Program-made: the position numbers and the translations under genes | The notes under the pieces: model-generated | What the model was told of the DNA's origin: nothing | The model's database searches: none | What the model saw: only the letters and a program-made list of their open reading frames with translations | Source: a virus | Length of the DNA stretch: 64,000 nucleotides | Virus record (IMG/VR): IMGVR_UViG_3300042561_001059 | Location: 19,535-83,534 of that record | Strand: one strand, 5' to 3' | Part shown: piece by piece, positions 18,861 to 45,377 of the stretch | How the letters are laid out: every line of letters begins with the position of its first letter | Numbering within the stretch: position 1 is the first letter of the stretch

Positions 18861-21538
18861 CCAGTGCAAATTTACTAACCTTGAAACCGGGCGAAATTAA
18901 CCTCCAGTGGATCCCGATCGAGTGGCCTCTTACTCCACTGGGGGAGAATAAAAATCCATATCTGACTGGTTGGCAGAACAAACCCTGCACTCCACATGAG
19001 ATTGCAAATGAGATCCAGGGGGGAGAGTGTAAAGCTGTTGGCCTCATTTCAGGTCCTTGCTACAACGAACCATATGGTCACGTTTGGGTTGACGTTGACG
19101 GACCCAGTGTTTACCAGTTGGTAGAAGAAGTTTCGGGGCATCAATTTGAGCAGGCACTCCCTGCTACCTTGACAATCTGTAGCGGTAAGAAGGGTAGGGA
19201 ACGTCGCCTATACCGCATCAATAAAAAAGATTGGGGTCATTTTGTACGTAATAAATATGTATGGCATGCATCGGCGGAAAAGGAGAAACTTGAGATCCTT
19301 TGGCAAAAGCACCAGGGTGTCTTGATGGGGTCTCACCCTGAGACTGATGGTTACTACACGCCTGAAGGGTTGGGATTTGAGTGGGTGCTAAGCATTCCCT
19401 ACTTACCTGCTTGGATTCTCGAAGGAATTAAAGATAAAAACAAGAAGCAAGGTAAGCCTTCCACTGAGCAGGGCAGGGTTGTTGGCCCAGGGTTTGCAAT
19501 TAATACGCGCATTTCACTTGAAAGGGACATGCAACTTGCTGTTGAAGCAACGTGGGCTATGCCTCCAGAAGCTGCAGATGATTACGATATTTGGATTATG
19601 GCGGGCCAAGCTCTCCATGAATTGGACGAATCGCTTCTTGATGTTTGGGATGATTGGTCTAAGCAGAGCGATAAGTACAAGCCAGGAGAATGTCAGAGGA
19701 GGTGGCAATCCTTTTCGAAGGGTGGTGGCAGAAGCATTGGATCGCTAATTCATATTGCCAAAGAGAATGGTTGGAAGCCAAGTGAGAACTATAAAGCGAT
19801 GAACGTTGATGATGAAACACTTGAACACGTATCCAAAGTCCTTGAGGAAATTGAAGAAGACATGGAACTCACCATTGAACCAGAGCGTGAATTAGTTGAG
19901 CTGAAGAGAGCTGATGTAAATATCCAGGCAAAGACAAAGAGTAAGAAAGGGAAGGATGGAAGTAACGTAACTCGCAACGCATCATCTGATGTCATTGCCG
20001 ATTTGTTGCTTCAGATGTACAGGGGCAACCTTTTGTACAGCCTTCCTCACGGTCAATTTTTTCTTTATGAGAAAGAAGGAAAAGGGCTCTGGTCTCCCAT
20101 GCAGAAGGTTGAGATCCTTGGTGACATCCGCGATAAGTTAAAAGAAATTAAAGAGTCTGGTGATTTGTTGCCAATGGGCTTCAGCTCCAGGCTGATGACC
20201 GATATGAGTGAACATCTTCAGTCGGCACTTTGTTTTAACGGTTGGTATGAAAGTGGTGATCTCCTCCTTTTCACCAATGGTATTTTGAATGTTGAGACCA
20301 GGGAGCTTCTTCCATTTAAGAGGGAGAAGTACATGACTCAGCAGATGCCATATGACTATGATCCTGCGGCTACCTGTGAAGATATTGTTGTTTGGTTAAA
20401 GCACACTCAATACAACAACTGGCAACGTGCTCAGGTACTCAGGGCTTGGTTAAGGGCCACATTGTTGGGTCGCTATGAATTGCAAAAGTTTCTTGAAATT
20501 GTTGGCCCAGGTAAGTCTGGTAAGTCAACGTATGCAAACCTGGCAGTTGCCTTGGTTGGCAAGAGGAATGTGTACTCAACTGACTTTGAGAACCTGGAGA
20601 AGAATAGATTTGAAGCCGCTGGTTACATGGGTAAAAAGCTGTTGCTGTTCCAGGATGCAGATCGTTGGGGTGGCTCTGTTTCGAGATTGAAAGCAATCAC
20701 CGGTAACGACTGGATTCGTTCTGAACGTAAGTATCAGCATGAAAATAATGAACCATTTCAATTCAAAGGGTTGGTGATGATTACTGCCAACGAAGCTATT
20801 CAGACAACAGACTACACCTCTGGTTTGGCCAGGCGGAGACTGACGATTCCATTTGATCGTCCTTTTACTGGATCACAGAAAGAACAAAAAGAACTCATCA
20901 AATTCAATACGAAAGGTGAGCCGCAAGGTGAGTTTGCTCCGCTGTTACCAGGGCTGGTTAATTGGTTGTTGGATATGAGTGAGGATGAAATGAGGGAATA
21001 CCTGATGGAAACCAATAAAAAAGTTGAGTTCTTTGGTAAGTATGCACACGTTCAAAACCTGAGGTCAAACCCAATCCTGGACTGGATGGAACACAAGATT
21101 GTTTTTGATCCGGGCGTTAAGTCGTGCATTGGTTTCTTGACTGGTAGCGCCAGTAATCAGTCATATGACAACCACACGCGTTGGCTGTACGCAAGCTATG
21201 CCGAATTCTGTAAACGGTGTAACGTTCACTCCATGAGCAGGAGCAGGTTCGAGGTTGTGTTCCTTGATATCTGCAGAAACCAGTTGAGTTTAAACGTATT
21301 TAATAGGAGGAATAGCAAAGGGTTGTTGTTCTTTAATGTGGCCGTTCGTGAATCTGATGGGAAGTACGATAACTATCCAAGTATCGTGACGGTTGCATCC
21401 GATAAAGAAAAGTATGAAATTGAATATGGCGTAAAGATTTCTGTGAATAGAGATGCGAGAATTGAAGATCAAGAAACTGTACTAGAAGCTGATGAACAAT
21501 ACGGGTCGACACCTGATCCTGGACCTTTATCGATGTGA
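18848..21538 (+). CDS. Primase-polymerase / PriCT-2 / D5-like SF3 helicase
   Basis: WVDVDG prim-pol motif; DDYDIWIMAGQALH..WDDWS..SDKY (PriCT-2); GPGKSGKST Walker A; ITANE..SGLARR. Confidence 0.92.
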   Translation: MSAVTSANLLTLKPGEINLQWIPIEWPLTPLGENKNPYLTGWQNKPCTPHEIANEIQGGECKAVGLISGPCYNEPYGHVWVDVDGPSVYQLVEEVSGHQFEQALPATLTICSGKKGRERRLYRINKKDWGHFVRNKYVWHASAEKEKLEILWQKHQGVLMGSHPETDGYYTPEGLGFEWVLSIPYLPAWILEGIKDKNKKQGKPSTEQGRVVGPGFAINTRISLERDMQLAVEATWAMPPEAADDYDIWIMAGQALHELDESLLDVWDDWSKQSDKYKPGECQRRWQSFSKGGGRSIGSLIHIAKENGWKPSENYKAMNVDDETLEHVSKVLEEIEEDMELTIEPERELVELKRADVNIQAKTKSKKGKDGSNVTRNASSDVIADLLLQMYRGNLLYSLPHGQFFLYEKEGKGLWSPMQKVEILGDIRDKLKEIKESGDLLPMGFSSRLMTDMSEHLQSALCFNGWYESGDLLLFTNGILNVETRELLPFKREKYMTQQMPYDYDPAATCEDIVVWLKHTQYNNWQRAQVLRAWLRATLLGRYELQKFLEIVGPGKSGKSTYANLAVALVGKRNVYSTDFENLEKNRFEAAGYMGKKLLLFQDADRWGGSVSRLKAITGNDWIRSERKYQHENNEPFQFKGLVMITANEAIQTTDYTSGLARRRLTIPFDRPFTGSQKEQKELIKFNTKGEPQGEFAPLLPGLVNWLLDMSEDEMREYLMETNKKVEFFGKYAHVQNLRSNPILDWMEHKIVFDPGVKSCIGFLTGSASNQSYDNHTRWLYASYAEFCKRCNVHSMSRSRFEVVFLDICRNQLSLNVFNRRNSKGLLFFNVAVRESDGKYDNYPSIVTVASDKEKYEIEYGVKISVNRDARIEDQETVLEADEQYGSTPDPGPLSM

Positions 21539-26263: not shown

Positions 26264-27354
26264 TTCTCAACAAGAATTGCCCATCCTGTATTTGGCCCGT
26301 CTACTTCCCAGCGACGCAACCAATTTTTGCGGCTGTATTTAATACCTTGTCCAGATTTTGGTTTTGTACTCACATAACCACCATTGCTCATATCTGCTTC
26401 TCCGTAAGGATCGTTAAAAACAAAATGCGTTGGTGTAATCCCTTTGATTACAGACCAATGTCCTCCACCGGAAGGTTTGGCAATGGATCCTTGGTGCAGC
26501 CAACCGACAGCAAGTGGCTTGCCACTATTGATTTCACTTTCAATTAATTTTGTATTTCCATTGGAAACAAACCTTGCATTGAGTCCCAGGTGTCTCAGTG
26601 TTTTTAGCTGAGCCATTGAATCAGTTGTATCACCAAAATTTACACGAATCTTGTTGTATTCATCATCAGAAGCTACCTTCCCATAGAAAGCTGCAATCAT
26701 TGCACAGCTAGAGGAAAAGCATTCCCTAAACCCTTTACCAGACTTATTGTCTAGTTGATAAAAATATGGAACCGTCAATATTTTTTCATTGCTGGTAATC
26801 GGTAATGATCCCAGCTTTTCATTCATAATATTAATTAATTTTTTTGCGTATTCTGGATCTGTAGCATATTGCTCTGTGACTAAAAGCTGGGCGCATTCAT
26901 TTCTATTACTTGCTCTATTTACACCTTTATAAGTGTTGTAGTCTTTATACCAACGATCTACCAGATACTGAACACACGATTCAAGATCTGGAAAATCCAT
27001 GAAATCATCTTTGATTTCAATCCATTTGTTATTGATAAATTCTTTTGTGCCTGCCGTACTTCCTTTACCTTTTAATCCAAAAAAATTGTTTGTGCCAGAG
27101 GTGAACTTACCGTATCCACTTTCTAGCGCCCATTGAGCAGCAACAACTTCTGGAAATTTGGCACCTGCTTTCTTTGCAATTTTTACTAGGTCGTCCCAGG
27201 TGTTGGTTGAGTTTTCTTTTGTTCCTTGTCGGTACTGGGTGGCAAATTCCTCTAAAATTTCAGGTGAAATATTTTTTTGCAGCCACTCCCATGCATCAAT
27301 TTGATGCTTTAAGTCCTTGAAGTTCTTAGCGGCATCAATAAGTTTTATTGACAT
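26260..27354 (-). CDS. Endolysin: GH73 glucosaminidase plus C39-like peptidase
   Basis: AQWALESGYG..NNFFGLK..YATDPEY; VPYFYQ..CFSSSCAM..GHWSV..NDPYG. Confidence 0.88.
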   Translation of the reverse strand: MSIKLIDAAKNFKDLKHQIDAWEWLQKNISPEILEEFATQYRQGTKENSTNTWDDLVKIAKKAGAKFPEVVAAQWALESGYGKFTSGTNNFFGLKGKGSTAGTKEFINNKWIEIKDDFMDFPDLESCVQYLVDRWYKDYNTYKGVNRASNRNECAQLLVTEQYATDPEYAKKLINIMNEKLGSLPITSNEKILTVPYFYQLDNKSGKGFRECFSSSCAMIAAFYGKVASDDEYNKIRVNFGDTTDSMAQLKTLRHLGLNARFVSNGNTKLIESEINSGKPLAVGWLHQGSIAKPSGGGHWSVIKGITPTHFVFNDPYGEADMSNGGYVSTKPKSGQGIKYSRKNWLRRWEVDGPNTGWAILVEK

Positions 27355-27368
27355 TTTATTTAAACAAA

Positions 27369-27968
27369 CTAGTTCTCAACTGTTTCAACAAGGTCCCACT
27401 GTTGTGCTTCTTCGTTCCATTCATATTCACCAGTCTCAACTGGTTTAGCAACAGGTGCTTCCCATTTACCAGTCATTGCAACCTGGATCCAACTTGGATA
27501 AGGTTGGGTTGCATCTGAAAGTTGCGGCCAGACTGGATATTCAGGCCCGGTGATAAATGCTGCTAACTCGTCGGTTGTCGTCGTTGCTTCAATAGCCGTA
27601 ATTTTGGTGGTACATGCAAGCCGAATTGCTTGACGCCAATTCTTTGTTTCTGTATCTATTGCAATTCCTTCGTCAACTTGCCTGACGATCATCCAATCGG
27701 TTGGCAACAAAAGAGTGTATGCAGTTTGATTTGTGTTTTGGTCCCAAGTGGAAACCAATTGTGTGTGATCTTTCGGAATTAAGTGCCCTTCCGAATCGTA
27801 CCCCCAATAGAACCTTTGGTCCCAAGTCGGGGGATCTGGAACTTCTTGAATGCCAATAGCTTGTTTTTCTTCCCAAGTACTAAGCTTTAGCCAATTGGCA
27901 GGATAATTAATGCCATTATGACTAAAAGCTGAGTCGGGCGCCAAGGGCCTACCATCTAAAACAAACAT
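27369..27968 (-). CDS. Tail-fibre-associated/assembly protein
   Basis: YPANWL..DQRFYWG..LLPTDWMIVR..WRQAIR, typical of tail fibre chaperone-like proteins. Confidence 0.65.
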   Translation of the reverse strand: MFVLDGRPLAPDSAFSHNGINYPANWLKLSTWEEKQAIGIQEVPDPPTWDQRFYWGYDSEGHLIPKDHTQLVSTWDQNTNQTAYTLLLPTDWMIVRQVDEGIAIDTETKNWRQAIRLACTTKITAIEATTTTDELAAFITGPEYPVWPQLSDATQPYPSWIQVAMTGKWEAPVAKPVETGEYEWNEEAQQWDLVETVEN

Positions 27969-28061
27969 TGCTTTTCTATTCTGTATATTTATTTTAACCT
28001 AGTTTCTTATTGACTTCATCTCTAACAGCTATTAAAATTTTGACACTTAATATTTCAAACT

Positions 28062-28916
28062 ATGTCAACTTCGATCCAAGAAGCCTGGGCCAACTTTAAA
28101 ACAGAGCGCTCAATCGTCCTTTGCCCTACAAGTTTAACTTCTGATTATGTGGTGGTTGACAAGTGGTTAAAAAAATGTCCGATAACTGATCTTACTCAAG
28201 GAAGACAATTAATGACCTGGGTGCTCCAGCAGAAGCCAACCAAAACAAGTAGGCGAGTGGCTATGTATGTCAAAAGCCTTTATCGATGGGCAACCAACGA
28301 AGATATTGCATTGGTAGAAAGAAATCCAATTTTGTCTTTTAAAATGCCCAAGGCGCCCCAGGAGGATGAAGAAATTATTGTCATTCCTCGTAATGAGGTT
28401 TCAATTGTTATTTCAGCCCTGGAAGGAAAGTTAAGAAAACCTAAATACAATTGGGCCTTCTATTCAGAATTCATGCTGCAAACTGCCATGAGAACTGGTG
28501 AAGTAAGAGCGTTGCGCTGGGAGGACATTAAAGACAACAAGATTCTTGTCCATTCAAACTACACTCTTACTCATGGACACAAAGATTCAACAAAAACAAA
28601 TCGTAAACGATGGGTTCCTCTCAACCAGCGTTGCCAAGAAATCCTAGACAAAACACCAAGAGAAGATTCCTACATCTTTCCTTACAACAGATATGCATTT
28701 CAAAGTTATTTTTACGATCGCATGAAAGAGTTAAAGAAAGAAAACGTAATTACACATCGTTATCGTCCTTATGATTTAAGGCATACCGCAATCTCTCGTT
28801 GGATTGAATCACAAATTCCTGTTGCGCAAGTTGCTTCATGGGCTGGCAACAGCTCAGAAGTTATTTGGAAACATTATTGCAATGTGACCCAGGAATACGA
28901 AATGCCTGTTCTTTAG
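28062..28916 (+). CDS. Tyrosine recombinase (core-binding plus catalytic domains, no evident arm-binding domain)
   Basis: TAMRTGEVRALRW (R), TKT (K), YDLRHT (HxxR variant), AGNS, WKHY (Y); 284 aa. Confidence 0.92.
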   Translation: MSTSIQEAWANFKTERSIVLCPTSLTSDYVVVDKWLKKCPITDLTQGRQLMTWVLQQKPTKTSRRVAMYVKSLYRWATNEDIALVERNPILSFKMPKAPQEDEEIIVIPRNEVSIVISALEGKLRKPKYNWAFYSEFMLQTAMRTGEVRALRWEDIKDNKILVHSNYTLTHGHKDSTKTNRKRWVPLNQRCQEILDKTPREDSYIFPYNRYAFQSYFYDRMKELKKENVITHRYRPYDLRHTAISRWIESQIPVAQVASWAGNSSEVIWKHYCNVTQEYEMPVL

Positions 28917-28925
28917 TGGAAGCGA

Positions 28926-29078
28926 CTACTGGGCTTTACCAGCAAGCGCCATTGCTCGGTTTTCTTCGTCTTTGACTGCTTGTCGGATCTGGCAAAGCAC
29001 ATGCTCTTCAGCCTTGGCGTTGCCGGAATCAATGGCAATCAAAAGCCTGATACAGAGTGAACGGTAATCAGCAGGCAT
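28926..29078 (-). CDS. 50-aa cassette-like ORF (below cutoff)
   Basis: MPADYRSLCIRLLIAIDSGNAKAEEHVLCQIRQAVKDEENRAMALAGKAQ; its stop TAG is one arm of site 28914. Confidence 0.6.
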   Translation of the reverse strand: MPADYRSLCIRLLIAIDSGNAKAEEHVLCQIRQAVKDEENRAMALAGKAQ

Positions 29079-29092
29079 AAAAGTTGGAATGA

Positions 29093-29320
29093 CTACTGGG
29101 CTTCAAGCTCGGTGGCGATGGCGAGGAGTTCTTCGCGAGTGTCTTGCTGAGCGATCCAAGTTGCCTCTTCCCAGTTATCCGCGTCCATGGGCTTCCGACG
29201 CTGCGGCACCACCTCATCCGCAACAGCTCGCAGGGCGGCGGCAATCTCGTCAGCAGGTGCAGGGCAGATTTCACGCACAGCATCCAACACCGCCTGCGCG
29301 GCGGGGGAGAGGTCAGTCAT
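29093..29320 (-). CDS. Small hypothetical protein
   Basis: MTDLSPAAQAVLDAV..AAALRAVAD..ELEAQ; its stop is one arm of site 29081. Confidence 0.65.
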   Translation of the reverse strand: MTDLSPAAQAVLDAVREICPAPADEIAAALRAVADEVVPQRRKPMDADNWEEATWIAQQDTREELLAIATELEAQ

Positions 29321-29666
29321 TGATCTGCTCAAGGGCACGGAGAAGGATGTTGTAGTGAGCTGCGTCCAGTTCAGCATCTTCCAGCACTGCGATGGCCTGC
29401 TCCTTCAAGCTCTGCGGCTTGGGGCGGCGGGCGGCGCGGAGTTGCCGAGATTCACCAGACCAGCCTTCTTTATCCAGCCACTCACAGCACGCCTCCAGCT
29501 CCTGGTCGGCAGCGGCCTGGATTTCAGGTTCGCGTCGCCACCAACCCCATTGGGCAGCGCAACGGGCAATGTGATGAGCATATGGAATCGAACGATCGTC
29601 ATACGCTGTGGTTTCCCACTGATGCACCAGCTCTGGCGGCGGGGTGGTGGGGTGTTGGTTAGTCAT
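29313..29666 (-). CDS. Small hypothetical protein, paralogue of 29659-29994
   Basis: HPTTPPPELV..DQELEAC..RRPKPQSLKEQA. Confidence 0.65.
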   Translation of the reverse strand: MTNQHPTTPPPELVHQWETTAYDDRSIPYAHHIARCAAQWGWWRREPEIQAAADQELEACCEWLDKEGWSGESRQLRAARRPKPQSLKEQAIAVLEDAELDAAHYNILLRALEQIND

Positions 29667-29994
29667 CGAGTTGCTCCAGGGCGAGGCCAATGATCTGAAC
29701 GGCTTCAGTTGTGTCCATCTGAGATGCAGTGGCATCATCCAAATGCTCTAGCGCAGCCAGCGCCTGCTCCTTTAAGGTCAGCGGTTTAGGGCGACGGGTT
29801 TTGCGCAGGTCACGAGCCAGACTTTCGCCTTCGTGGAACTTAACGAACGTCACGCACGCCTCCAGCTCCTGGTCGGAACCCCATTGAGCAATAGAGGCAA
29901 AGACATCCGCGATGCCATGAGGCTCGACAAGCGAAGCCCATGCTCGTACCAGCTCTTCTGGTGGCGTGATCGGGTGCTTGTAATCTTGGGTCAT
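29659..29994 (-). CDS. Small hypothetical protein, paralogue of 29313-29666
   Basis: HPITPPEELV..DQELEAC..RRPKPLTLKEQA; GGAGG upstream of the ATG. Confidence 0.7.
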   Translation of the reverse strand: MTQDYKHPITPPEELVRAWASLVEPHGIADVFASIAQWGSDQELEACVTFVKFHEGESLARDLRKTRRPKPLTLKEQALAALEHLDDATASQMDTTEAVQIIGLALEQLDD

Positions 29995-30200
29995 CGTCGA
30001 TCCTCCAATCGGCGGTCACAGGGGCAGGGTGTTAGCGCACCGCTGCTCCACCACCTTACCACCCTGCCAAGCCAGCTAACACGTCCAGCACCACGTGTTA
30101 AGAAATTGGCGTTTTGTTAACTTCAGGGGCTTGTATTGTCAACCCTATTGTCAACCTCGTCATCGTGCGCGGGCAGTAGAAGGCTTGTTCTCTAGTGGGG

Positions 30201-33200
30201 TCAGCGGGCGCGGGCGTATTGGAAGGGCGATTCGGCGAAGGCGGCGTAAATAAAAGTTGCTCCAGATGCGTTGACGCGAGTGTCTGATGAGCGAGCTTTA
30301 AATCCATTGGAAACAATGTCAAAAGGCCATATATCTGCATCCGCCTGCGAGGAATTGAATAGCAGGTCGTTGCCTGCTGTGTTGTACGGACTCCGCGCAG
30401 CGTCGTAAACACGCCAATCGCCGGTTGAGTCGGACCTCTTGATAAAGAAATACCTCGGCCTAAACCCGGTGTACACAAACGGCCCATCCGCGCTGCCGTT
30501 GCCGGTGTAGCTGCCGAAACTAGAGTACCCGGCTACTGGGGTAAAACAGTAGCAAATATGGTCAAAGCTGTTGCCCCACCATGAGAGATCACCTCCTGTA
30601 AATACTGTTGATGTTGGTTCTGTGTTGTTCCAAGGGTATGTTTGCGTGTCTGCAGCGTTTGTCAGGTTTAACCGCAGGAATTTTGTAGCTCCTAGTGCAG
30701 AGTGGTAAACAGACCATGCGCCGCCAGCCCCTGTCGCCTTGTCGATAATCAGAGCCGGTTTGGCGCCCAAACCATGCCCCACGGTGAACGGTGATGACGT
30801 TCCCGTGTTGAACTTGACAATTGAAAATCCCGCCGTCGTGTTGGCCCTGACACTAGAAGTGATGGAGCCTTGTGTGTTCGTGACGGTGGAGCTTCCGGCG
30901 TCCCAGGTCCAGGCGACGTAGGTATTACCAGAAGCATTGACGTCACCGTCAGGATTAGAGCCCAAGGAAAACCCGCCTGAATCAAAAGACGTAAGGGAGT
31001 TGGTAAATGTCGCTTCTGCGCTTGTAGTGCTGCTGGCTAAGCGCTGTGTGGCACCTCTAACAATGTCATAAAGGGAATGGTTGCCAGTAGTATTTCTGAC
31101 CTTTGCCCACACCAAATCAGGGCTAAACGCAAGCCCGGTGATGTTTTGTGTTGCCCCTGTGCCCGTATACAGCTTCACGTCCATCACCGTATTAGGCTTT
31201 GTGACTAATGGCGCGGGCAAGTTTGTCGTGCAGAGCGCTTTGAAGCCGCTGGGGGCCGTGTAGGCGAAGGGGCGGGCACCTGCGTTAAAGACCGCACTTG
31301 TGCTGCCACCATTTCCTGTGGCGAACGTATACGGCCCGTTTGTTAGACCCGAATACGCCTGCCCTTGACTCGCGCCGTTTTTGTAAAAAGTAAGTGTTCC
31401 AGCGTCGGCATCAAAAGCAACACCGATAACATCGTTTGTAGTGTATGAGGCGCCGTAAGATGTTGCGCTGTTATTTGTGTACTTGTTCCCGTTGTCTGCG
31501 TAGTAACCCCAGCTATCAGCGTTGCCACCGATAAAAGTTGTTGCAACCGTGCCCGCGGCTCGCTGTAAGCCGAACATATTAGAGACGCTAGTGGCCGTAA
31601 ATTCGCAGTACCATTTGCCACTGCTAATAGCGATAGTGCTCTGAGCGATGACCGACCCAGTGCTAGTGGCGGTCCAGTCGAGGTTTCCGTTGCTCAACGT
31701 GCAGTTGGCTTGCTTGCTGAGGGGATTGAGCGTCGCATAATTCCCCCTAACCTCACCCCCCACGCCCGTATCCGTCTGCGCCCCATTAGTGGGAACGTCT
31801 ACGAGGGAATCGTTAGCCGCTGCAACCGAGCCGATAACGGTGGAACTGGGCGGGTTGAAATTGCCGGTGTACTTAGCTGCACCTACATACACACGGAAAT
31901 CCTGCAGCGAACCATTGAAGTTTTGAGCTGCACCGCCATCAGTGGCGCCAATACGAATGGTAATTGAGCCTGAATCTCCGACGCTGCTTGCACTGCTGTA
32001 GGTGGATGTTTGCAGACCATTGATGTACATCGCCCAGGATGAGCCAGATCTCACAACAGCGAAGTGGCTCCACGCTCCTTGGGTCAGGTTTGTGTTTGAG
32101 CTAAGGATTGCTGAGCCGCCGCCAATTGAGTTCACAAACCAACCAAGAATTGTGTTGGCGCCTTGGCCGCAGGTCAGGTTGTAACGCCCAGCTTGCCATG
32201 TATCAGTGTTGCTGAAGATTGAACCGCCGGTTGAAGCGTTTGGATAAATCCAGCCTTCAATCGTAAAGTCAGATGAGCCAAAAACTATGTCATGCGTACC
32301 TGCAATACTCAGGAAATCGCCTGAGCCATCAAGCAAACCGCTGCTGCCATAAAACTTGCTTAGCCCGGTATTGGTCTTGGCATTACCGTTTGCCGTTACC
32401 GTTTTGGCGCTTCCACTGCCTTTGATCGTTGCGCTCTCGTCGGTAAATGTAGTCCCGTTATTAGCGCCATCCATTGGAAGCGCTAGACGAATCGAGCTGC
32501 TGTTGCTGTCTGTGCGGGTGCCGGTGCCTTTGGTTGTGCCGTAGGTGTCGGTGGTGTTGTAGATCGGCAGCGCACCAGATGCTGCAGCAACGGAAGTTGG
32601 GCCACCAGTGTTAATGCTGACGTTAAACGGGGTCCAGTTGTTCCCGTTGCCACTAGTGTCCTTCCCTAATGTGGTCGCGGTATTGCTGCTGTTGTCCGCG
32701 AACTCCAGATGCCAGCCTTGCGAGCCGTAGCTGCCGGTGTACGCCTTGGGGATAAGCTGGCCGGTAGTGGCGTCGGTTTCGGTGAAGCTGCTGGGGGTCA
32801 GCGCTTGGCCGTCGATGAAGTAGATGTCGGCTAGGTAGCCGGGGAAGAAGTTAGAAGAATTGAAAGTGTTTCTTCCAATATTGTGTGAAAGGGTAGAGTT
32901 TACGGCTGTATCTAAATTCAGTGTTGGAGCTGCGTTCGTGTCAAAGACGGTAATCTCTTCTCCGTTGACGTACATTTTTACTCTATTAGATGCGGTCGCC
33001 TGTGTGGTATCTACTGCAACCATTACATGATACCAAGCGGAAACATCCCTATAAACAGCAGTTGTACGCCTTAGCTCAGCCGATCCAGTGCCGCATGAAA
33101 ATTTATCGTTGGTAAAAGAAACCTGAAAATAGGTTCCTTCCGCCAAAGACGTTCCAACAATAAATAGTGCGTGCTCTCCTGATGCTTGGAGCCCACTCCG

Positions 33201-33374
33201 CTTCACCCATCCCGCCCAGGTCCAGGTGGTGCGGTTGCCCGCAGATGCGGGGGTGCGGGACAAGTAGGCACTGTCACTACTATTGAATCTGAGACTTCTG
33301 GAAATAGAGTATCCTCCAGCACCGCCTCCTTGTCCAGACGCGCCAATAAGACCGTTGTTGTGGAAGATACTCAT
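30201..33374 (-). CDS. Multi-domain tail/receptor-binding protein (LamG/ConA-like and SPRY-like domains)
   Basis: WTWAGWVKR..WYHVMVA, DFTIEGWIY..WSHFAVVR, SGKWYCEF..DVIGVAFD; ends FAESPFQYARAR. Confidence 0.8.
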   Translation of the reverse strand: MSIFHNNGLIGASGQGGGAGGYSISRSLRFNSSDSAYLSRTPASAGNRTTWTWAGWVKRSGLQASGEHALFIVGTSLAEGTYFQVSFTNDKFSCGTGSAELRRTTAVYRDVSAWYHVMVAVDTTQATASNRVKMYVNGEEITVFDTNAAPTLNLDTAVNSTLSHNIGRNTFNSSNFFPGYLADIYFIDGQALTPSSFTETDATTGQLIPKAYTGSYGSQGWHLEFADNSSNTATTLGKDTSGNGNNWTPFNVSINTGGPTSVAAASGALPIYNTTDTYGTTKGTGTRTDSNSSSIRLALPMDGANNGTTFTDESATIKGSGSAKTVTANGNAKTNTGLSKFYGSSGLLDGSGDFLSIAGTHDIVFGSSDFTIEGWIYPNASTGGSIFSNTDTWQAGRYNLTCGQGANTILGWFVNSIGGGSAILSSNTNLTQGAWSHFAVVRSGSSWAMYINGLQTSTYSSASSVGDSGSITIRIGATDGGAAQNFNGSLQDFRVYVGAAKYTGNFNPPSSTVIGSVAAANDSLVDVPTNGAQTDTGVGGEVRGNYATLNPLSKQANCTLSNGNLDWTATSTGSVIAQSTIAISSGKWYCEFTATSVSNMFGLQRAAGTVATTFIGGNADSWGYYADNGNKYTNNSATSYGASYTTNDVIGVAFDADAGTLTFYKNGASQGQAYSGLTNGPYTFATGNGGSTSAVFNAGARPFAYTAPSGFKALCTTNLPAPLVTKPNTVMDVKLYTGTGATQNITGLAFSPDLVWAKVRNTTGNHSLYDIVRGATQRLASSTTSAEATFTNSLTSFDSGGFSLGSNPDGDVNASGNTYVAWTWDAGSSTVTNTQGSITSSVRANTTAGFSIVKFNTGTSSPFTVGHGLGAKPALIIDKATGAGGAWSVYHSALGATKFLRLNLTNAADTQTYPWNNTEPTSTVFTGGDLSWWGNSFDHICYCFTPVAGYSSFGSYTGNGSADGPFVYTGFRPRYFFIKRSDSTGDWRVYDAARSPYNTAGNDLLFNSSQADADIWPFDIVSNGFKARSSDTRVNASGATFIYAAFAESPFQYARAR

Positions 33375-33380
33375 TTCAAA

Positions 33381-33689
33381 TCACCAAGGAACGCCTGCTG
33401 CTTTGCTGGGACGACGCTGTTCTTCAAGTTGTGACTGAAGTGCGTCTTCAATTTCAGCCACTTTTTCGTCGCCAAATTTTTCTTTCACCCAACCAATGAC
33501 CATGTCTTCGGTCAGATTGGCGAAAGAAACCATAGGAGTTTCAGGGCGCTCCAGGCCAATGGAGCCATAAGCACCAGCGGAGTAGGTATCGTCTTTGGCG
33601 TCGACGGTGTAGTGGACGGTAAACACATAACCGTCACTGGTTTCGCGCTCAAGCTGAGCAACTTTCCAGGTAAAAGCAGTAGTCGTCAT
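33381..33689 (-). CDS. Small tail-fibre-associated protein
   Basis: FTWKVAQLER..FANLTEDMVIGWVK..GVPW. Confidence 0.65.
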   Translation of the reverse strand: MTTTAFTWKVAQLERETSDGYVFTVHYTVDAKDDTYSAGAYGSIGLERPETPMVSFANLTEDMVIGWVKEKFGDEKVAEIEDALQSQLEEQRRPSKAAGVPW

Positions 33690-35080
33690 GAGTAGTTGGC
33701 AGTAAAGACCGTGTGGATAGACGTGGAACTACGAACAATATAGTCCACCCTATCTACAGCGTTGGCAGCGGTACTTAGCGTGGGCGCCGTGCCACCAGGG
33801 AAGTCCCAGTAAGAACCCCAAGAAGCTGTCCTACCACCAGTTCCATCTTGAACGAGGAAGATACTTCCGCTTTGACCGGCGGTAATATTCGTGGGGTTTG
33901 CGATTGTACGTGCTCCACCCAATGTGACTGTAAAGTTACAATCTGCTGCTAAATCGGGGGTTATCGTTGCGCCATCGGTCAGTGTACCAATGACAGCAAC
34001 AGCGCCATTTTGAATAGTGACAACACCATTCTGTGCAATCCTCATCCTTTCTGTTGGAGAAGAAGCGCCGTCAGCAGTAGTGGAGAACACTAGTCTGCCC
34101 GGCATATCGTTAGTGCCGGGGGTGCCGTCTACACGGCATTCAATAAGTGCAGCTCGGATGTAACCAGTTCCGTCCGCACCCGCAAATCGAATATCTCCAA
34201 GGAAATCACCATCTACAACGGAAGCAAATCCACCCGCCGTTGTTGAGCGTGTCTTTTTAAAATAAACTGCGCCAGCAAAAGCGTCATTTGAAAAATGCCC
34301 AAAGTCCGCTGTGTAATAGTTGCTGCTGTTGGTTGTTACTTGAAGCCTTGCATCTCCTTGACCATTGGTAACGCTACTAGACGTGCCAACTAAGAGCCTG
34401 CCGGAGTTGTCGATGCGGGCGCGTTCTGATGCGGCGTTAGCCCCTCCGGTATGGATAGCAAGTGCTCCGTTGCTTCCCGAAGGTACAAGCAGTTTGGCAT
34501 AATTAGAGCCCGTGATATTAAAGTTAAACGCTCTGGCTGAGTCCGCTGCTGCACCAGGGTCAAATTCAATAGTTCCCCCAACCACATCAAGGCGCCCTAC
34601 AGGGCTCGTAGTGCCAATCCCTAGTCGGTTATTGGTCGCATCAAAGAAGACGCCACTTGACCCGCCAAGCTGAATATCACCGTCCGCTTGTATCTCTAGT
34701 CTCTTGGTCCCATTAGTTGAGATGGCTACTTGGTCAGCGCCTGGAGAGTAAAGACCGGTGTTGGAATCGCCGGTAAATGAAATCGAAGGGCTTGCTGCTG
34801 AACCAGCCGCAAAAACACCAGAAGTAATGGTATATGTGCCGCCACTGATATTGGTAAAGTTACCGCTCGTAAAGGTTGCCGTGGTGCCAGTTACGGTAAT
34901 ACCGCTAACAGTTGTAAATGCTCCAACGGTTCCGGTAACTGTTACGCCGGAAATAGTTCCGGTACAAGTTACGTTTCCACTAAATGTTGGGTTTTGAACT
35001 AATCCAGAAATCTGAATGCTTTTGTCGACACCAGCATCTGTAAATGTGATGGTATCAACTTTAATAATTCCGTACGGCAT
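33686..35080 (-). CDS. Tail fibre protein
   Basis: T/G-rich shaft, NTGLYSPGADQVAIST, RLGIGTTSP, ERARID..GRLLVGT, GRLVFST, QDGTGGRT. Confidence 0.8.
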   Translation of the reverse strand: MPYGIIKVDTITFTDAGVDKSIQISGLVQNPTFSGNVTCTGTISGVTVTGTVGAFTTVSGITVTGTTATFTSGNFTNISGGTYTITSGVFAAGSAASPSISFTGDSNTGLYSPGADQVAISTNGTKRLEIQADGDIQLGGSSGVFFDATNNRLGIGTTSPVGRLDVVGGTIEFDPGAAADSARAFNFNITGSNYAKLLVPSGSNGALAIHTGGANAASERARIDNSGRLLVGTSSSVTNGQGDARLQVTTNSSNYYTADFGHFSNDAFAGAVYFKKTRSTTAGGFASVVDGDFLGDIRFAGADGTGYIRAALIECRVDGTPGTNDMPGRLVFSTTADGASSPTERMRIAQNGVVTIQNGAVAVIGTLTDGATITPDLAADCNFTVTLGGARTIANPTNITAGQSGSIFLVQDGTGGRTASWGSYWDFPGGTAPTLSTAANAVDRVDYIVRSSTSIHTVFTANYS

Positions 35081-35116
35081 GGCAGTTCTTTTTCTTTTAT
35101 TATTTTACTTTAAGTA

Positions 35117-36928
35117 TTAAGGCAAAATAATTAACGGTCCTTTGATAATAAATCCGCTGGTGCTACCAGAAACAACACCTGAGCATGTAATCGCTACTGT
35201 TGAACCAGAAGGCTGCGTAATATGAAGCGTTTGTCCCGTTATGTTTGTAAATAAACCCGCAGTTCCTGTAATTGTTTGACCAGATACGGTTCCGGTGACA
35301 CTTATACCAGAACCAAAAAATCCAGATCCAAGGGTAAATGTATTACCGGAGAAAGTAAAGTCTCCAGAAAAACTTTGATTTGCAGCTTGTAGATATTCAA
35401 ATACGCCTGAAGTACCTCTAATAATATTGCCGGTGATTGTTTGACCTGAGACTTGAGTTGTGAAGATGCCAGAAACACTGGTAAGAGTGGTGCTGTTAAT
35501 TGTGTTACCAGTGATCGTGTTGCCGCTTATCTGTGTAGTAAATACGCCGCTTACACCGCTAATCGCTTGGAAATTAATTGTTCCACCAGTGATCGTGGCA
35601 CCTGTAATGCTATTGAATCCAGCAGACTGACCAGTTAACGTCGTGAACTGTCCGGTATTGCCGGTAATTGTGGCACCTGAAATCTGAGTAGTGAAGACGC
35701 CTGATTGAAAATTTGCTATTGTTCCGGTAACGGAAGCACCTGAGATTTGAGAAGTAAATACTCCAGAAACTCCAGTGATTGTGGTGGCACGTACCGTATT
35801 TCCTGTAATGACCAGGCCGCTTAACTGACTGGTAAATACACCAGATACTCCTGTAATAGTTGTTGCATTTACCGTATTTCCGGTAATTGCGGCGCCAGAG
35901 ATTTGGCTGGTAAAGACTCCTGAAACAAAATTAGCAGTTGTACCGGTAACCGTAGTTCCAGTTACAGTAGTAAACCCTGCTGTATCACCCGTAATAACCG
36001 TGCCACTTAACCGAGTAAAAACACCGGAAGTGAAATTAGACGTGGTTCCTGTAACCGTTACTCCACTTAAAGTTCCACTGATATTGACGCCTGACGAAAA
36101 GAATCCAGATCCAAGTACAGAAAGATTGCCTGAAACGGTCAGGTTGTTTTGAACGGTATGGCCACTGGTAACCAGAGTTCCAAAGGTTCCCGTTGTTGCG
36201 TTTACTGTATTTCCAGTGATTGTGGCCCCTGAAATACGATCGGTAAACGTACCGCTAACAGCAACAACGTTGGTAAATCCACCGAGACTTCCGGTTACAA
36301 GCGTTCCGGAAACCTGGGTAGTAAAAACGCCTGATTGGAAATTAGCCGTAGTTCCGGTAATGGTTGTACCAGTTACGGTTGTAAATCCGGCCGTATTTCC
36401 TGTTAAAGTACCAAACTGACCAGTGGTGCCAGTAATTGTCGTTCCTGTTAACGTCCCACTTACCGTTACGCCAGACGTAAAGAAAGAGTTGCCGCGTGCA
36501 AATAAAGTTCCACTGACAGTTAAATTATTTTGAACGTTGTGTCCACTGGTGGTTAGTGTTTGGAACGTTGCGTTTGTAGCGTTTACATTAGTTCCGGTCA
36601 GCGTGGTACCACTGATCGTACCTGTGACTGTTAAATTATTTTGTACAAAAACGGCATTGAAGTTAGCAATGCCATTGACATTAGCAGCACCAAGGGTAGT
36701 TGTTCCAGTAACTTCAAGAGTGCTGTTGATTAAAAGTGGTCCAGTCAGTACACCGCCTGTGAAAGTTAAATATTTTGTATTTAAGTAGTTTGCAAATTCA
36801 GTTAAGGTAATTTTTTTATTTTTAAGCGTCGGGTCAACTTCGAATACGTGAACAATCGTCAGCAAATCGTCCTCTGCTAACGACCCGCCCTGAATTGAGG
36901 GCAATTCCGTAATCCTTCTATTTGACAC
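35117..36928 (-). CDS. Long T/G/S-repeat tail fibre shaft protein
   Basis: Many SGVFTxQISGxxITG / TGTT repeats. Confidence 0.75.
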   Translation of the reverse strand: MSNRRITELPSIQGGSLAEDDLLTIVHVFEVDPTLKNKKITLTEFANYLNTKYLTFTGGVLTGPLLINSTLEVTGTTTLGAANVNGIANFNAVFVQNNLTVTGTISGTTLTGTNVNATNATFQTLTTSGHNVQNNLTVSGTLFARGNSFFTSGVTVSGTLTGTTITGTTGQFGTLTGNTAGFTTVTGTTITGTTANFQSGVFTTQVSGTLVTGSLGGFTNVVAVSGTFTDRISGATITGNTVNATTGTFGTLVTSGHTVQNNLTVSGNLSVLGSGFFSSGVNISGTLSGVTVTGTTSNFTSGVFTRLSGTVITGDTAGFTTVTGTTVTGTTANFVSGVFTSQISGAAITGNTVNATTITGVSGVFTSQLSGLVITGNTVRATTITGVSGVFTSQISGASVTGTIANFQSGVFTTQISGATITGNTGQFTTLTGQSAGFNSITGATITGGTINFQAISGVSGVFTTQISGNTITGNTINSTTLTSVSGIFTTQVSGQTITGNIIRGTSGVFEYLQAANQSFSGDFTFSGNTFTLGSGFFGSGISVTGTVSGQTITGTAGLFTNITGQTLHITQPSGSTVAITCSGVVSGSTSGFIIKGPLIILP

Positions 36929-45014: not shown

Positions 45015-45377
45015 TCACACAGCCGGTTTCAATACTGAAGATTGGTAGTAACAGATATCAACAACTTCTTGTGACATCCATGCTTTTATTTTTTCCATCC
45101 TAACCTGAGTAAAGAATTCTTGCTGCTTGTACCACTCTTCAACCTCAGTACTTCCTTTATTGCTATTGCAGCGTCTACATGCAGGAATTAAGTTATTTCT
45201 ATTACTTGACCCAGACTTAAATCTAGGGACAATATGATCAAGGCTCGTTGCAAAATCTTCGCAATAAGCACACTTGCTTTCCCATTCTTCGTAGATAGAT
45301 TCTCTAAACTTTCTTTTTGCTAACCTTGGAGTTAATTCGACCAGCAGAGCAAGAGGCGCGTGCTCGTCATGGAACAT
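45015..45377 (-). CDS. HNH endonuclease
   Basis: CAYC..SLDHIVP..NLIPACRRCNSNKG. Confidence 0.88.
   Translation of the reverse strand: MFHDEHAPLALLVELTPRLAKRKFRESIYEEWESKCAYCEDFATSLDHIVPRFKSGSSNRNNLIPACRRCNSNKGSTEVEEWYKQQEFFTQVRMEKIKAWMSQEVVDICYYQSSVLKPAV

Follow-up and report, generated by a model that had tools for sequence, protein, structure and literature searches.

The analyzed window comprises 64,000 nucleotides (positions 19,535 to 83,534) of the 83,534-bp viral record IMGVR_UViG_3300042561_001059 and contains two fibre genes in which a short interrupted palindrome, TAG-N9-CTA, is repeated. The record was matched by lake-water metagenome runs. Nucleotide matches to the Synechococcus phages S-CBS2 and S-CBP42 were weak, and the virus appears to be a lake cyanophage-like one.

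The larger gene (30201..33374, minus strand) encodes a fibre-like receptor-binding protein of 1057 amino acids (aa) and carries eight sites. Its layout is an N-terminal domain followed by LamG, SPRY and DUF7483, as indicated by Pfam (PF13385, Laminin_G_3; PF00622, SPRY; PF24299, DUF7483), by tail fibre and virion structural families of PHROG and by the domains of an AlphaFold model. The second gene (33686..35080, minus strand) encodes a tail fibre of 464 aa, assigned by the tail fibre families phrog_18345 and phrog_9942 and by its site peptides. It carries four sites, here named landmarks.

Occurrence of TAG-N9-CTA in the fibre genes

In total, 15 TAG-N9-CTA sites were found in the window and 12 of these were located within the two fibre genes. 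The complete genome contained 19 sites; the seven outside the fibre genes were at about chance level and similar in number to other spacings. The region 30201-35080 contains 68 TAG and 46 CTA. Here, the offset between the starts of TAG and CTA that corresponds to N9 occurred 12 times and all other offsets zero to three times, the trivial CTAG overlap excepted. A whole-genome scan of spacings from 0 to 30 gave zero to two sites in the two fibre genes for every spacing other than 9. Synonymous shuffling of the codons within each gene (5000 runs) gave 1.45 sites on average and seven at most, versus the 12 observed. Furthermore, the ratio of exact to one-mismatch forms was 12:10 in the two fibre genes and 3:166 in the remaining window. 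The spacing-specific enrichment, the shuffling and the excess of exact forms show that the motif is real and is kept exact.

The initial annotation had placed the 12 intragenic sites, their phases and their peptides correctly. Nine sites are in the phase xTA-Gxx..xCT-Axx and three (33265, 31501 and 30508) in the other one. The 9:3 split, which had been regarded as suggestive, turned out to be uninformative because only two phases avoid an in-frame stop codon, and 40 distinct site positions in 74 homologues of the 1057-aa gene were split 22:18. In the 464-type family the split was 451:31, since the five landmarks described below sit on one repeated protein motif.

The 9-bp cores of 13 window sites were compared and all were different. 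This had been noted before, but it is trivial for 13 random 9-mers. An extended motif, TAGT/ACTA, was present in 12 of the 13 window sites, yet in 70 of 129 distinct 15-mers of the wider set, which is about chance, and was dropped. Copies of the site words that might act as guide or donor were searched for in the rest of the genome (up to two to three mismatches), with no result above chance.

Conserved sites in the two fibre families

The landmarks of the 464-aa fibre encode VAISTN (aa 118, 34714..34728), LGIGTT (aa 153, 34609..34623), LVGTSS (aa 230, 34378..34392) and LVFSTT (aa 330, 34078..34092). The 15-mer encoding LGIGTT, here referred to as the GIGT word, was found in identical form in at least 120 viral contigs. 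Among the 125 matches listed, [VLI]GIGT was read in every case and the frame was open in 123. A total of 387 further N9 sites lay at most 1.5 kb away from these matches, compared to 19-112 for spacings 3-18. The dominant 15-mers of the loci encoded VAISTN, LGLGTS, VGIGTT, LVGTSS and LVFSTT, and the window's gene has four of these five landmarks. In the loci that were read individually the five kept one order from the N- to the C-terminus, and the vocabulary recurred across the wider set.

The loci were ascertained on the GIGT word alone, and the other four landmarks were then scored by peptide, once per distinct context. The respective peptides were site-coded in 57 of 67 (LVFSTT), 59 of 91 (LVGTSS), 49 of 52 (VAISTN) and, for the remaining one, 54 of 73 contexts, where about 10% is expected from codon use. 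Within the 15-mers the third-codon letters were fixed to 86-100% with one exception (45%), and just outside mostly to 43-81%. The first letter of the NTA codon varies between T, C and G (Leu, Leu and Val), and the letters past CTA vary too. The proposal that these peptides are kept for DNA-level reasons is thereby supported.

Among pairs of distinct GIGT contexts from the matches listed, both 60-nt flanks were at most 60% identical in 8849 of 8911. This is too little homology for ordinary homologous recombination; 15 bp with unrelated flanks lie below the minimal homology lengths of that process. As judged from the sequence comparison, the frozen unit in 464-type fibres is the 15-mer itself, core included. 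Five paralogous boxes have kept their arms though their cores diverged completely. Across genomes the cores are position-specific in both fibre families, with the five landmark 15-mers frozen at synonymous sites in more than 120 viral contigs. The AlphaFold model of the 464-aa fibre (mean predicted local distance difference test score, pLDDT, 46) was too poor for site mapping.

A universal codon rule for VGIGTT.P was tried and rejected. In an unbiased degenerate scan of all viral contigs 37 of 212 occurrences were site-coded and three of 212 had the window's codons; an excess of GTA-with-ACT was confounded by genome composition. Site-coding is thus a feature of one virus community or lineage and not of the protein motif. 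The GIGT word also had 120 matches in cellular genomes, 59 of them in open frames, with mixed contexts and no N9 excess (35 versus 9-36). In L165, L170, L239 and 11 more loci, fibre genes are present as tandem paralogues, and the same series of landmark 15-mers recurs in them with matching spacing; in L165 three words are each duplicated about 2.1 kb apart.

For the 1057-aa gene 80 homologous viral-contig loci were found. Their matched genes (197 kb) hold 198 N9 sites versus a mean of 23 over 30 other spacings, and the flanks of these genes 127 versus 29-143. Six positions were site-bearing in 17-41 of the 74 distinct homologues, each with its own core. That the motif is imposed by the protein family was considered and rejected: the distant isolates MEP301, ACG-2014e, MW202481 and SS120-1 had 1, 1, 3 and 0 N9 sites, respectively, like other spacings. 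Since the signal is absent from these four isolates and from cellular genomes, the protein does not impose the motif.

The AlphaFold model of the 1057-aa protein, based on a 34-sequence alignment, reached a mean pLDDT of 69. Confident domains were predicted at aa 44-224, 343-510, 545-698 and 728-1049, and long low-confidence segments at 1-43, 225-342, 511-544 and 699-727. Each of these four leader or linker segments contains one site. The site at aa 32 (SSDSAY, phase 2; 33265..33279; 24 of 74 homologues) belongs to the N-terminal leader and lies at the 5' edge of a conserved block whose end is 8 nt off. The site at aa 236 (LGKDTS; 32654..32668; 21 of 74) is found in the linker between domain 1 and LamG; the match of one contig to the window starts at 32646, 8 nt ahead of it, with unlike sequence before. 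The LamG-SPRY linker contains the site at aa 525 (VDVPTN; 31787..31801; 41 of 74), which is 5 nt from a block end and whose core ACGTTCCCA was present in 37 of the 41 homologues having that site. At aa 723 (LVTKPN; 31193..31207; 24 of 74), in the SPRY-DUF7483 linker, similarity on the 3' side was lost in 56-62 pairs.

The other four sites are located within folded domains of the model. The site at aa 947 (VAGYSS; 30521..30535; 22 of 74; block end 6 nt off) lies inside DUF7483 and has its CTAG in common with its tandem partner at aa 951 (SSFGSY, phase 2; 30508..30522; 17 of 74). Two sites are private, each being present in 2 of 74 homologues: aa 620 (DSWGYY, phase 2; 31501..31515) inside a SPRY strand (E621-625) and aa 779 (LASSTT; 31025..31039) inside DUF7483. 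The previously assumed location of the sites at domain junctions was therefore supported for aa 32, 236, 525 and 723 but not for aa 620, 779, 947 and 951. As 25% of the residues are of low confidence, a binomial p of ~0.04 is obtained for the location of four of the six family-conserved sites in such segments. The linker placement in the predicted structure is statistically modest; that there is one site per linker is striking.

At the nucleotide level the six conserved sites sit in short high-identity blocks (aa 30-55, 180-241, 521-543, 696-728, 821-845 and 943-969) that alternate with hypervariable domain bodies. According to the ends of BLAST segments, five of seven sites were at most 8 nt away from a conserved-block edge, a degenerate site at the 3' end of the gene included. 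Most homologues are about 2.4 kb long and have the sites 236 and 525 just 84 nt apart. The LamG domain of the window (aa ~250-515; 31802-32653), which lies between these two sites, is an insertion when compared to most homologues. A short form without LamG (joint 31775->32646) was present in contigs of two lake runs.

Contigs of four lake-metagenome runs were aligned to the window at 95% identity or more. Among the divergence points listed, which leave 33 further loose ends aside, those at site edges were 28912 (two runs), 34393 (three), 34396 (two), 34379 and 34623. The points 34379, 34393 and 34396 belong to the LVGTSS site and came from four runs together; one contig departs from the window exactly at 34623, the edge of the LGIGTT site. 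Three points (32646, 31775 and 31176) were 8-17 nt off sites and five (30861, 31274, 31723, 32724 and 34877) were distant from them. Additionally, contigs of three lake runs join 34093->34373, an in-frame skip of 279 nt (93 codons) that leaves 6 nt between the LVGTSS and LVFSTT sites. With just 21 letters on its shorter matched side, this joint is a lead only.

The GC content of 30000-34000, in the two fibre genes, is 0.51-0.54 compared to mostly 0.38-0.46 in the remaining window. Fibre homologues on other contigs are similarly GC-rich (0.47-0.57), which suggests a shared circulating gene pool. Sharp switches at sites were not found in a fine GC profile along the 464-aa gene.

Cassette boundaries and the recombinase gene

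A degenerate copy of the fibre 3'-end site, AAG-N9-CTA, was detected at 30180..30194, 6 nt past the stop codon of the 1057-aa gene, by one-mismatch and repeat search. We inspected 18 of the 80 loci at the fibre 3' end, chosen for a site just beyond the matched gene. At least 14 of these 18 carried TAG[TA]GAACAAG[AC]CTA shortly after the fibre stop, and synteny breaks directly past CTA. In several other loci a gene starting with MF(I/V)L begins a few nt past the fibre 3'-end site.

The 1.3 kb between the 1057-aa gene and a tyrosine recombinase gene contain small unannotated ORFs. Two further boundaries were found downstream of the fibre genes. A second degenerate AAG-N9-CTA (29081..29095; repeat D10) marks a cassette boundary and coincides with a joint, 28936->29081, in two runs. 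A complete site at 28914..28928, whose TAG is the stop codon of the recombinase gene, bounds the cassette array, and contigs diverge at 28912. In the window the cassettes and the recombinase gene are wedged between the fibre 3' end and the gene of a 199-aa protein (27369-27968, minus strand) that belongs to no family and has relatives in 69 of 103 fibre loci. A Pfam search of the cassette ORFs, the 199-aa neighbour and the 859-, 508- and 603-aa proteins gave no match other than HNH.

The recombinase gene (28062..28916, plus strand) encodes a Xer-like protein of 284 aa with a PF00589 match at 2e-16. Matches to XerD, XerC and XerA models were weak and far below cut-off. Read by eye, the last catalytic box before the KHY tyrosine appears to be AGN instead of the usual GH. 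The family yielded 1375 matches; many had 66-98% identity, and their contigs were up to 60-86 kb long. Among 52 loci selected by the presence of the recombinase, the stop codon was the TAG arm of a site in nine and a TAA arm in about 15, and N9 was enriched from -3 to +3 kb around the gene (e.g. 29 versus 6.9 and 20 versus 3.6). The recombinase gene thus sits cassette-like at a boundary.

The recombinase is a candidate enzyme, yet it is not required for the sites. A search for PF00589 in 15 other site-bearing viral records, among them six that are at least 90% complete, gave no match, and the recombinase of the own genome was recovered as a positive control. The recombinase-free set includes a 45.5-kb genome with terminal repeats that has eight of its nine sites in the fibre gene. 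Among 103 fibre loci, recombinase homologues were present in nine. The expectation that conserved cores are confined to recombinase-bearing genomes is thereby refuted.

A 120-aa HNH endonuclease (45015-45377, minus strand; PF01844 at 5e-10) has an HNH part that resembles that of IscB/Cas9. In 44 of the 80 loci and in one locus of the other fibre set, homologues were found at a distance of 0.07-6.4 kb downstream from the fibre gene. Since they are present in site-free loci too, there is no association with the sites and the protein was rejected as the enzyme.

Proposed module exchange and competing explanations

The TAG-N9-CTA words are a DNA-level element under selection at fixed positions, or addresses, of receptor-binding genes in a community of lake cyanophage-like viruses. 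The motif is statistically real, is conserved in a position-specific manner and is placed in inter-domain linkers and at conserved-block edges. We propose that the words are DNA-level joints for in-register module exchange, a candidate function to which we assign a probability of about one half. They probably guide the swapping of fibre parts, and the data suggest that exchange may take place exactly at the sites.

In such an exchange the palindromic TAG/CTA arms would be the common recognition feature, read by a protein, and the 9-bp core a position-specific address common to different viruses. Two co-infecting genomes would be joined solely at the same address, and the variable domain would be exchanged at the word itself with the reading frame intact. 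The same word also bounds the small-gene cassettes downstream of the fibre gene. A reader of TAG and CTA alone would leave the core free; since the core is frozen, two DNA molecules would be expected to pair core to core. If there is a reader, the candidates are a recombinase of the Xer-like family that acts in trans in co-infected cells, a nuclease and a host enzyme.

Several results weigh against exchange at the words. The sharpest mosaic edges of the 1057-aa family (aa 55, 180, 538 and 696) are free of sites and as sharp as those with sites or sharper. Of 20 frozen islands common to at least 25 loci, one has a complete site and three more touch one. A k-mer island scan of this family (L001-L161) gave many 15-mers that are not sites and have equally diverse flanks, and palindromes were not among its top islands. 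The borders of the LamG insertion lie about 12 codons inward of the sites 236 and 525. Not all module borders are at sites, since L016-L018 and L031, which are nearly identical relatives, part from the window at 34859, a position 130 nt away from the closest site. Identical 15-mers were directly repeated in 22 cases, from tandem paralogous fibres in 14 of 250 loci; that all cores of a genome differ, and that distinct cores block deletion within it, are accordingly no rules. No read or contig with a reciprocal exchange inside a core was found, although contigs cannot reveal rare recombinants. No enzyme was identified as the reader, and three conserved bp per arm are, to our knowledge, well short of any known recombinase arm. 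The relatives diverging at 34859, at about codon 74 of the 464-aa fibre, share 96-98% identity over 7-8 kb of structural genes.

In a narrower form of this proposal, the adjacent 284-aa recombinase could itself be the enzyme, with TAG and CTA flanking the overlap and with cores that must match like the spacers of lox or FRT, which would amount to cassette exchange between heterospecific sites in nature; we regard this as unlikely. It would agree with the distance of 1.3 kb to the fibre gene, with the N9 enrichment in the 52 recombinase loci, where the stop codon is an arm of the fibre 3'-end site, and with the conservation of the cores by position across genomes, as would be needed for overlap identity between recombination partners. 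The overlap of tyrosine recombinases is usually 6-8 bp, so that a 9-bp core is atypically long. Inverted arms of the length known from lox, FRT, dif and sfx (~11-13 bp) were not found: only TAG and CTA are common, and the outer flanks are not conserved between positions. For lox, dif and sfx, arms of 11-13 bp are to be compared with the present 3 bp (sfx 12-7-12; PMC11852207). Moreover, a cognate recombinase is present in the window but absent from the 15 other site-bearing records and from most of the 103 fibre loci, and the gene may be a plain integrase that behaves as a cassette itself.

The shufflon resembles such an arrangement: a tyrosine recombinase gene neighbours an adhesin gene whose coding sequence contains several short sites, and host or recipient recognition is diversified. 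Its sfx sites have a conserved core and right arm and are arranged in inverted orientation, and the tyrosine recombinase Rci inverts segments within one replicon (PMC11852207). The words of the fibre genes differ from these by their 3-bp arms, by cores that differ from position to position and by the lack of a recombinase in most site-bearing genomes. Inverted repeated sites flanking invertible segments were not observed: the cores of the window are distinct, and no 15-mer had an inverted duplicate in 250 loci.

The cassettes recall the attC sites of integrons, where a short repeated element next to a recombinase or a plastic region likewise forms the boundary at which small accessory genes come and go. 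These sites are folded structures of 57-141 bp that are conserved only in short inverted triplets. The present element is an unfolded 15-bp word with 3-bp arms that also occurs within coding sequence, and a repeat search found no attC-like palindromes at the boundaries.

Less likely still is that the palindrome is an accident of spelling that hitch-hikes on homologous recombination occurring anywhere in short conserved boxes. The boxes of the 1057-aa family are up to 50 nt long and mostly free of palindromes and, as said, site-free edges are as sharp or sharper. The nearest design described is that of the long-tail-fibre and gp38 adhesin genes of T-even phages, where hypervariable segments are separated by short conserved motifs (GRMs and His boxes) and chimeras arise by exchange in or near these motifs (Trojet et al. 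2011, PMC3157838). There, the motifs are described as structural cores of the protein which are used by homologous recombination, and receptor-binding parts form a community-wide interchangeable pool, as in the fibres analyzed here. The same alternation is seen in the six blocks of the 1057-aa family and the five landmarks of the 464-type, and exchange in or near motifs is seen in identity switches at block edges, contig divergences at or near sites and the ends of high-scoring segment pairs. In contrast to the T-even genes, what is conserved in the 464-type fibres is a 15-nt interrupted palindrome, exact and frozen in its synonymous letters, with unrelated flanks, and the word form also bounds intergenic gene cassettes.

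The data of the 1057-aa gene agree in part with hitch-hiking; those of the 464-type and the arithmetic of chance do not. About 500 nt of frozen sequence would contain ~0.1-0.3 palindromes by chance and not six or seven. An unrelated gene and intergenic cassette boundaries contain words of the same form, the frozen 464-type unit is the 15-mer with both flanks diverged, and the arms of the five paralogous boxes outlasted their cores. The 12:10 ratio of exact to one-mismatch forms likewise argues against an incidental palindrome.

The words might instead be recognized by a dimeric DNA-binding protein that has a different function, such as restriction-modification or methylation, regulation, or packaging and replication, with no recombination joint involved; this we consider improbable. 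Interrupted palindromes of this kind, with 3-bp half-sites a fixed distance apart, are classic dimer targets, and XcmI (CCAN9TGG) is a restriction site of the same 3+9+3 layout. Neither the frozen synonymous positions of the 9-bp core nor the confinement of the sites to fibre genes and cassette borders would be explained by it. Neither genome-wide avoidance, as would be expected of a restriction-modification target, nor enrichment was observed, the seven sites outside the fibres being at about chance level. No endonuclease or methylase of this specificity was identified; the 120-aa HNH protein was the sole nuclease seen. An RNA or translation signal (rare NUA and NCU codons that pace the folding of fibre repeats, or a motif for mRNA binding or cleavage) would fit the five 464-type landmarks on one repeated structural motif in one phase, but it is very improbable, given phase-2 and intergenic sites, a first codon that alternates between TTA, CTA and GTA (three different tRNAs) with just TA fixed, a 3-bp stem that cannot fold and no Rfam match over 27000-36000 at E<=1.

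By these comparisons the words belong to no known site family. Taking joints for module exchange one step further, a community-wide code of cassette exchange is conceivable, in which a trans-acting enzyme cuts or exchanges strands at the TAG/CTA arms and the cores pair between co-infecting genomes; we put it forward tentatively and with more doubt than confidence. By such a code, lake cyanophages would be able to reassort both their receptor-binding domains and their accessory-gene cassettes with frame and order preserved, similar to heterospecific-site cassette exchange or to ordered sticky-end assembly. Recombinase-mediated cassette exchange with heterospecific lox or FRT spacers is an engineered method with 13-bp arms and a known enzyme. 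Identical arms with different spacers make the sites incompatible, so that a flanked cassette swaps in register. The likeness lies in this principle. A natural counterpart was not found in open papers and preprints, nor was a description of an interrupted palindrome in fibre genes.

How phages reshuffle their host-recognition proteins fast and without breakage is a long-standing question that is usually answered by homologous recombination in conserved motifs. In the fibres analyzed here, conservation can be limited to an exact interrupted palindrome of 15 nt, which is common to more than 100 otherwise unrelated fibre sequences. If the words are not read by an enzyme, they remain a clear-cut example of synonymous sites under strong selection, for which an explanation is still needed. 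The finding would be categorically new only if an enzyme that reads the addresses exists. In that case, the words would stand for in-frame exchange of a new, address-coded kind and offer a simple handle for predicting or engineering the host range of environmental phages.

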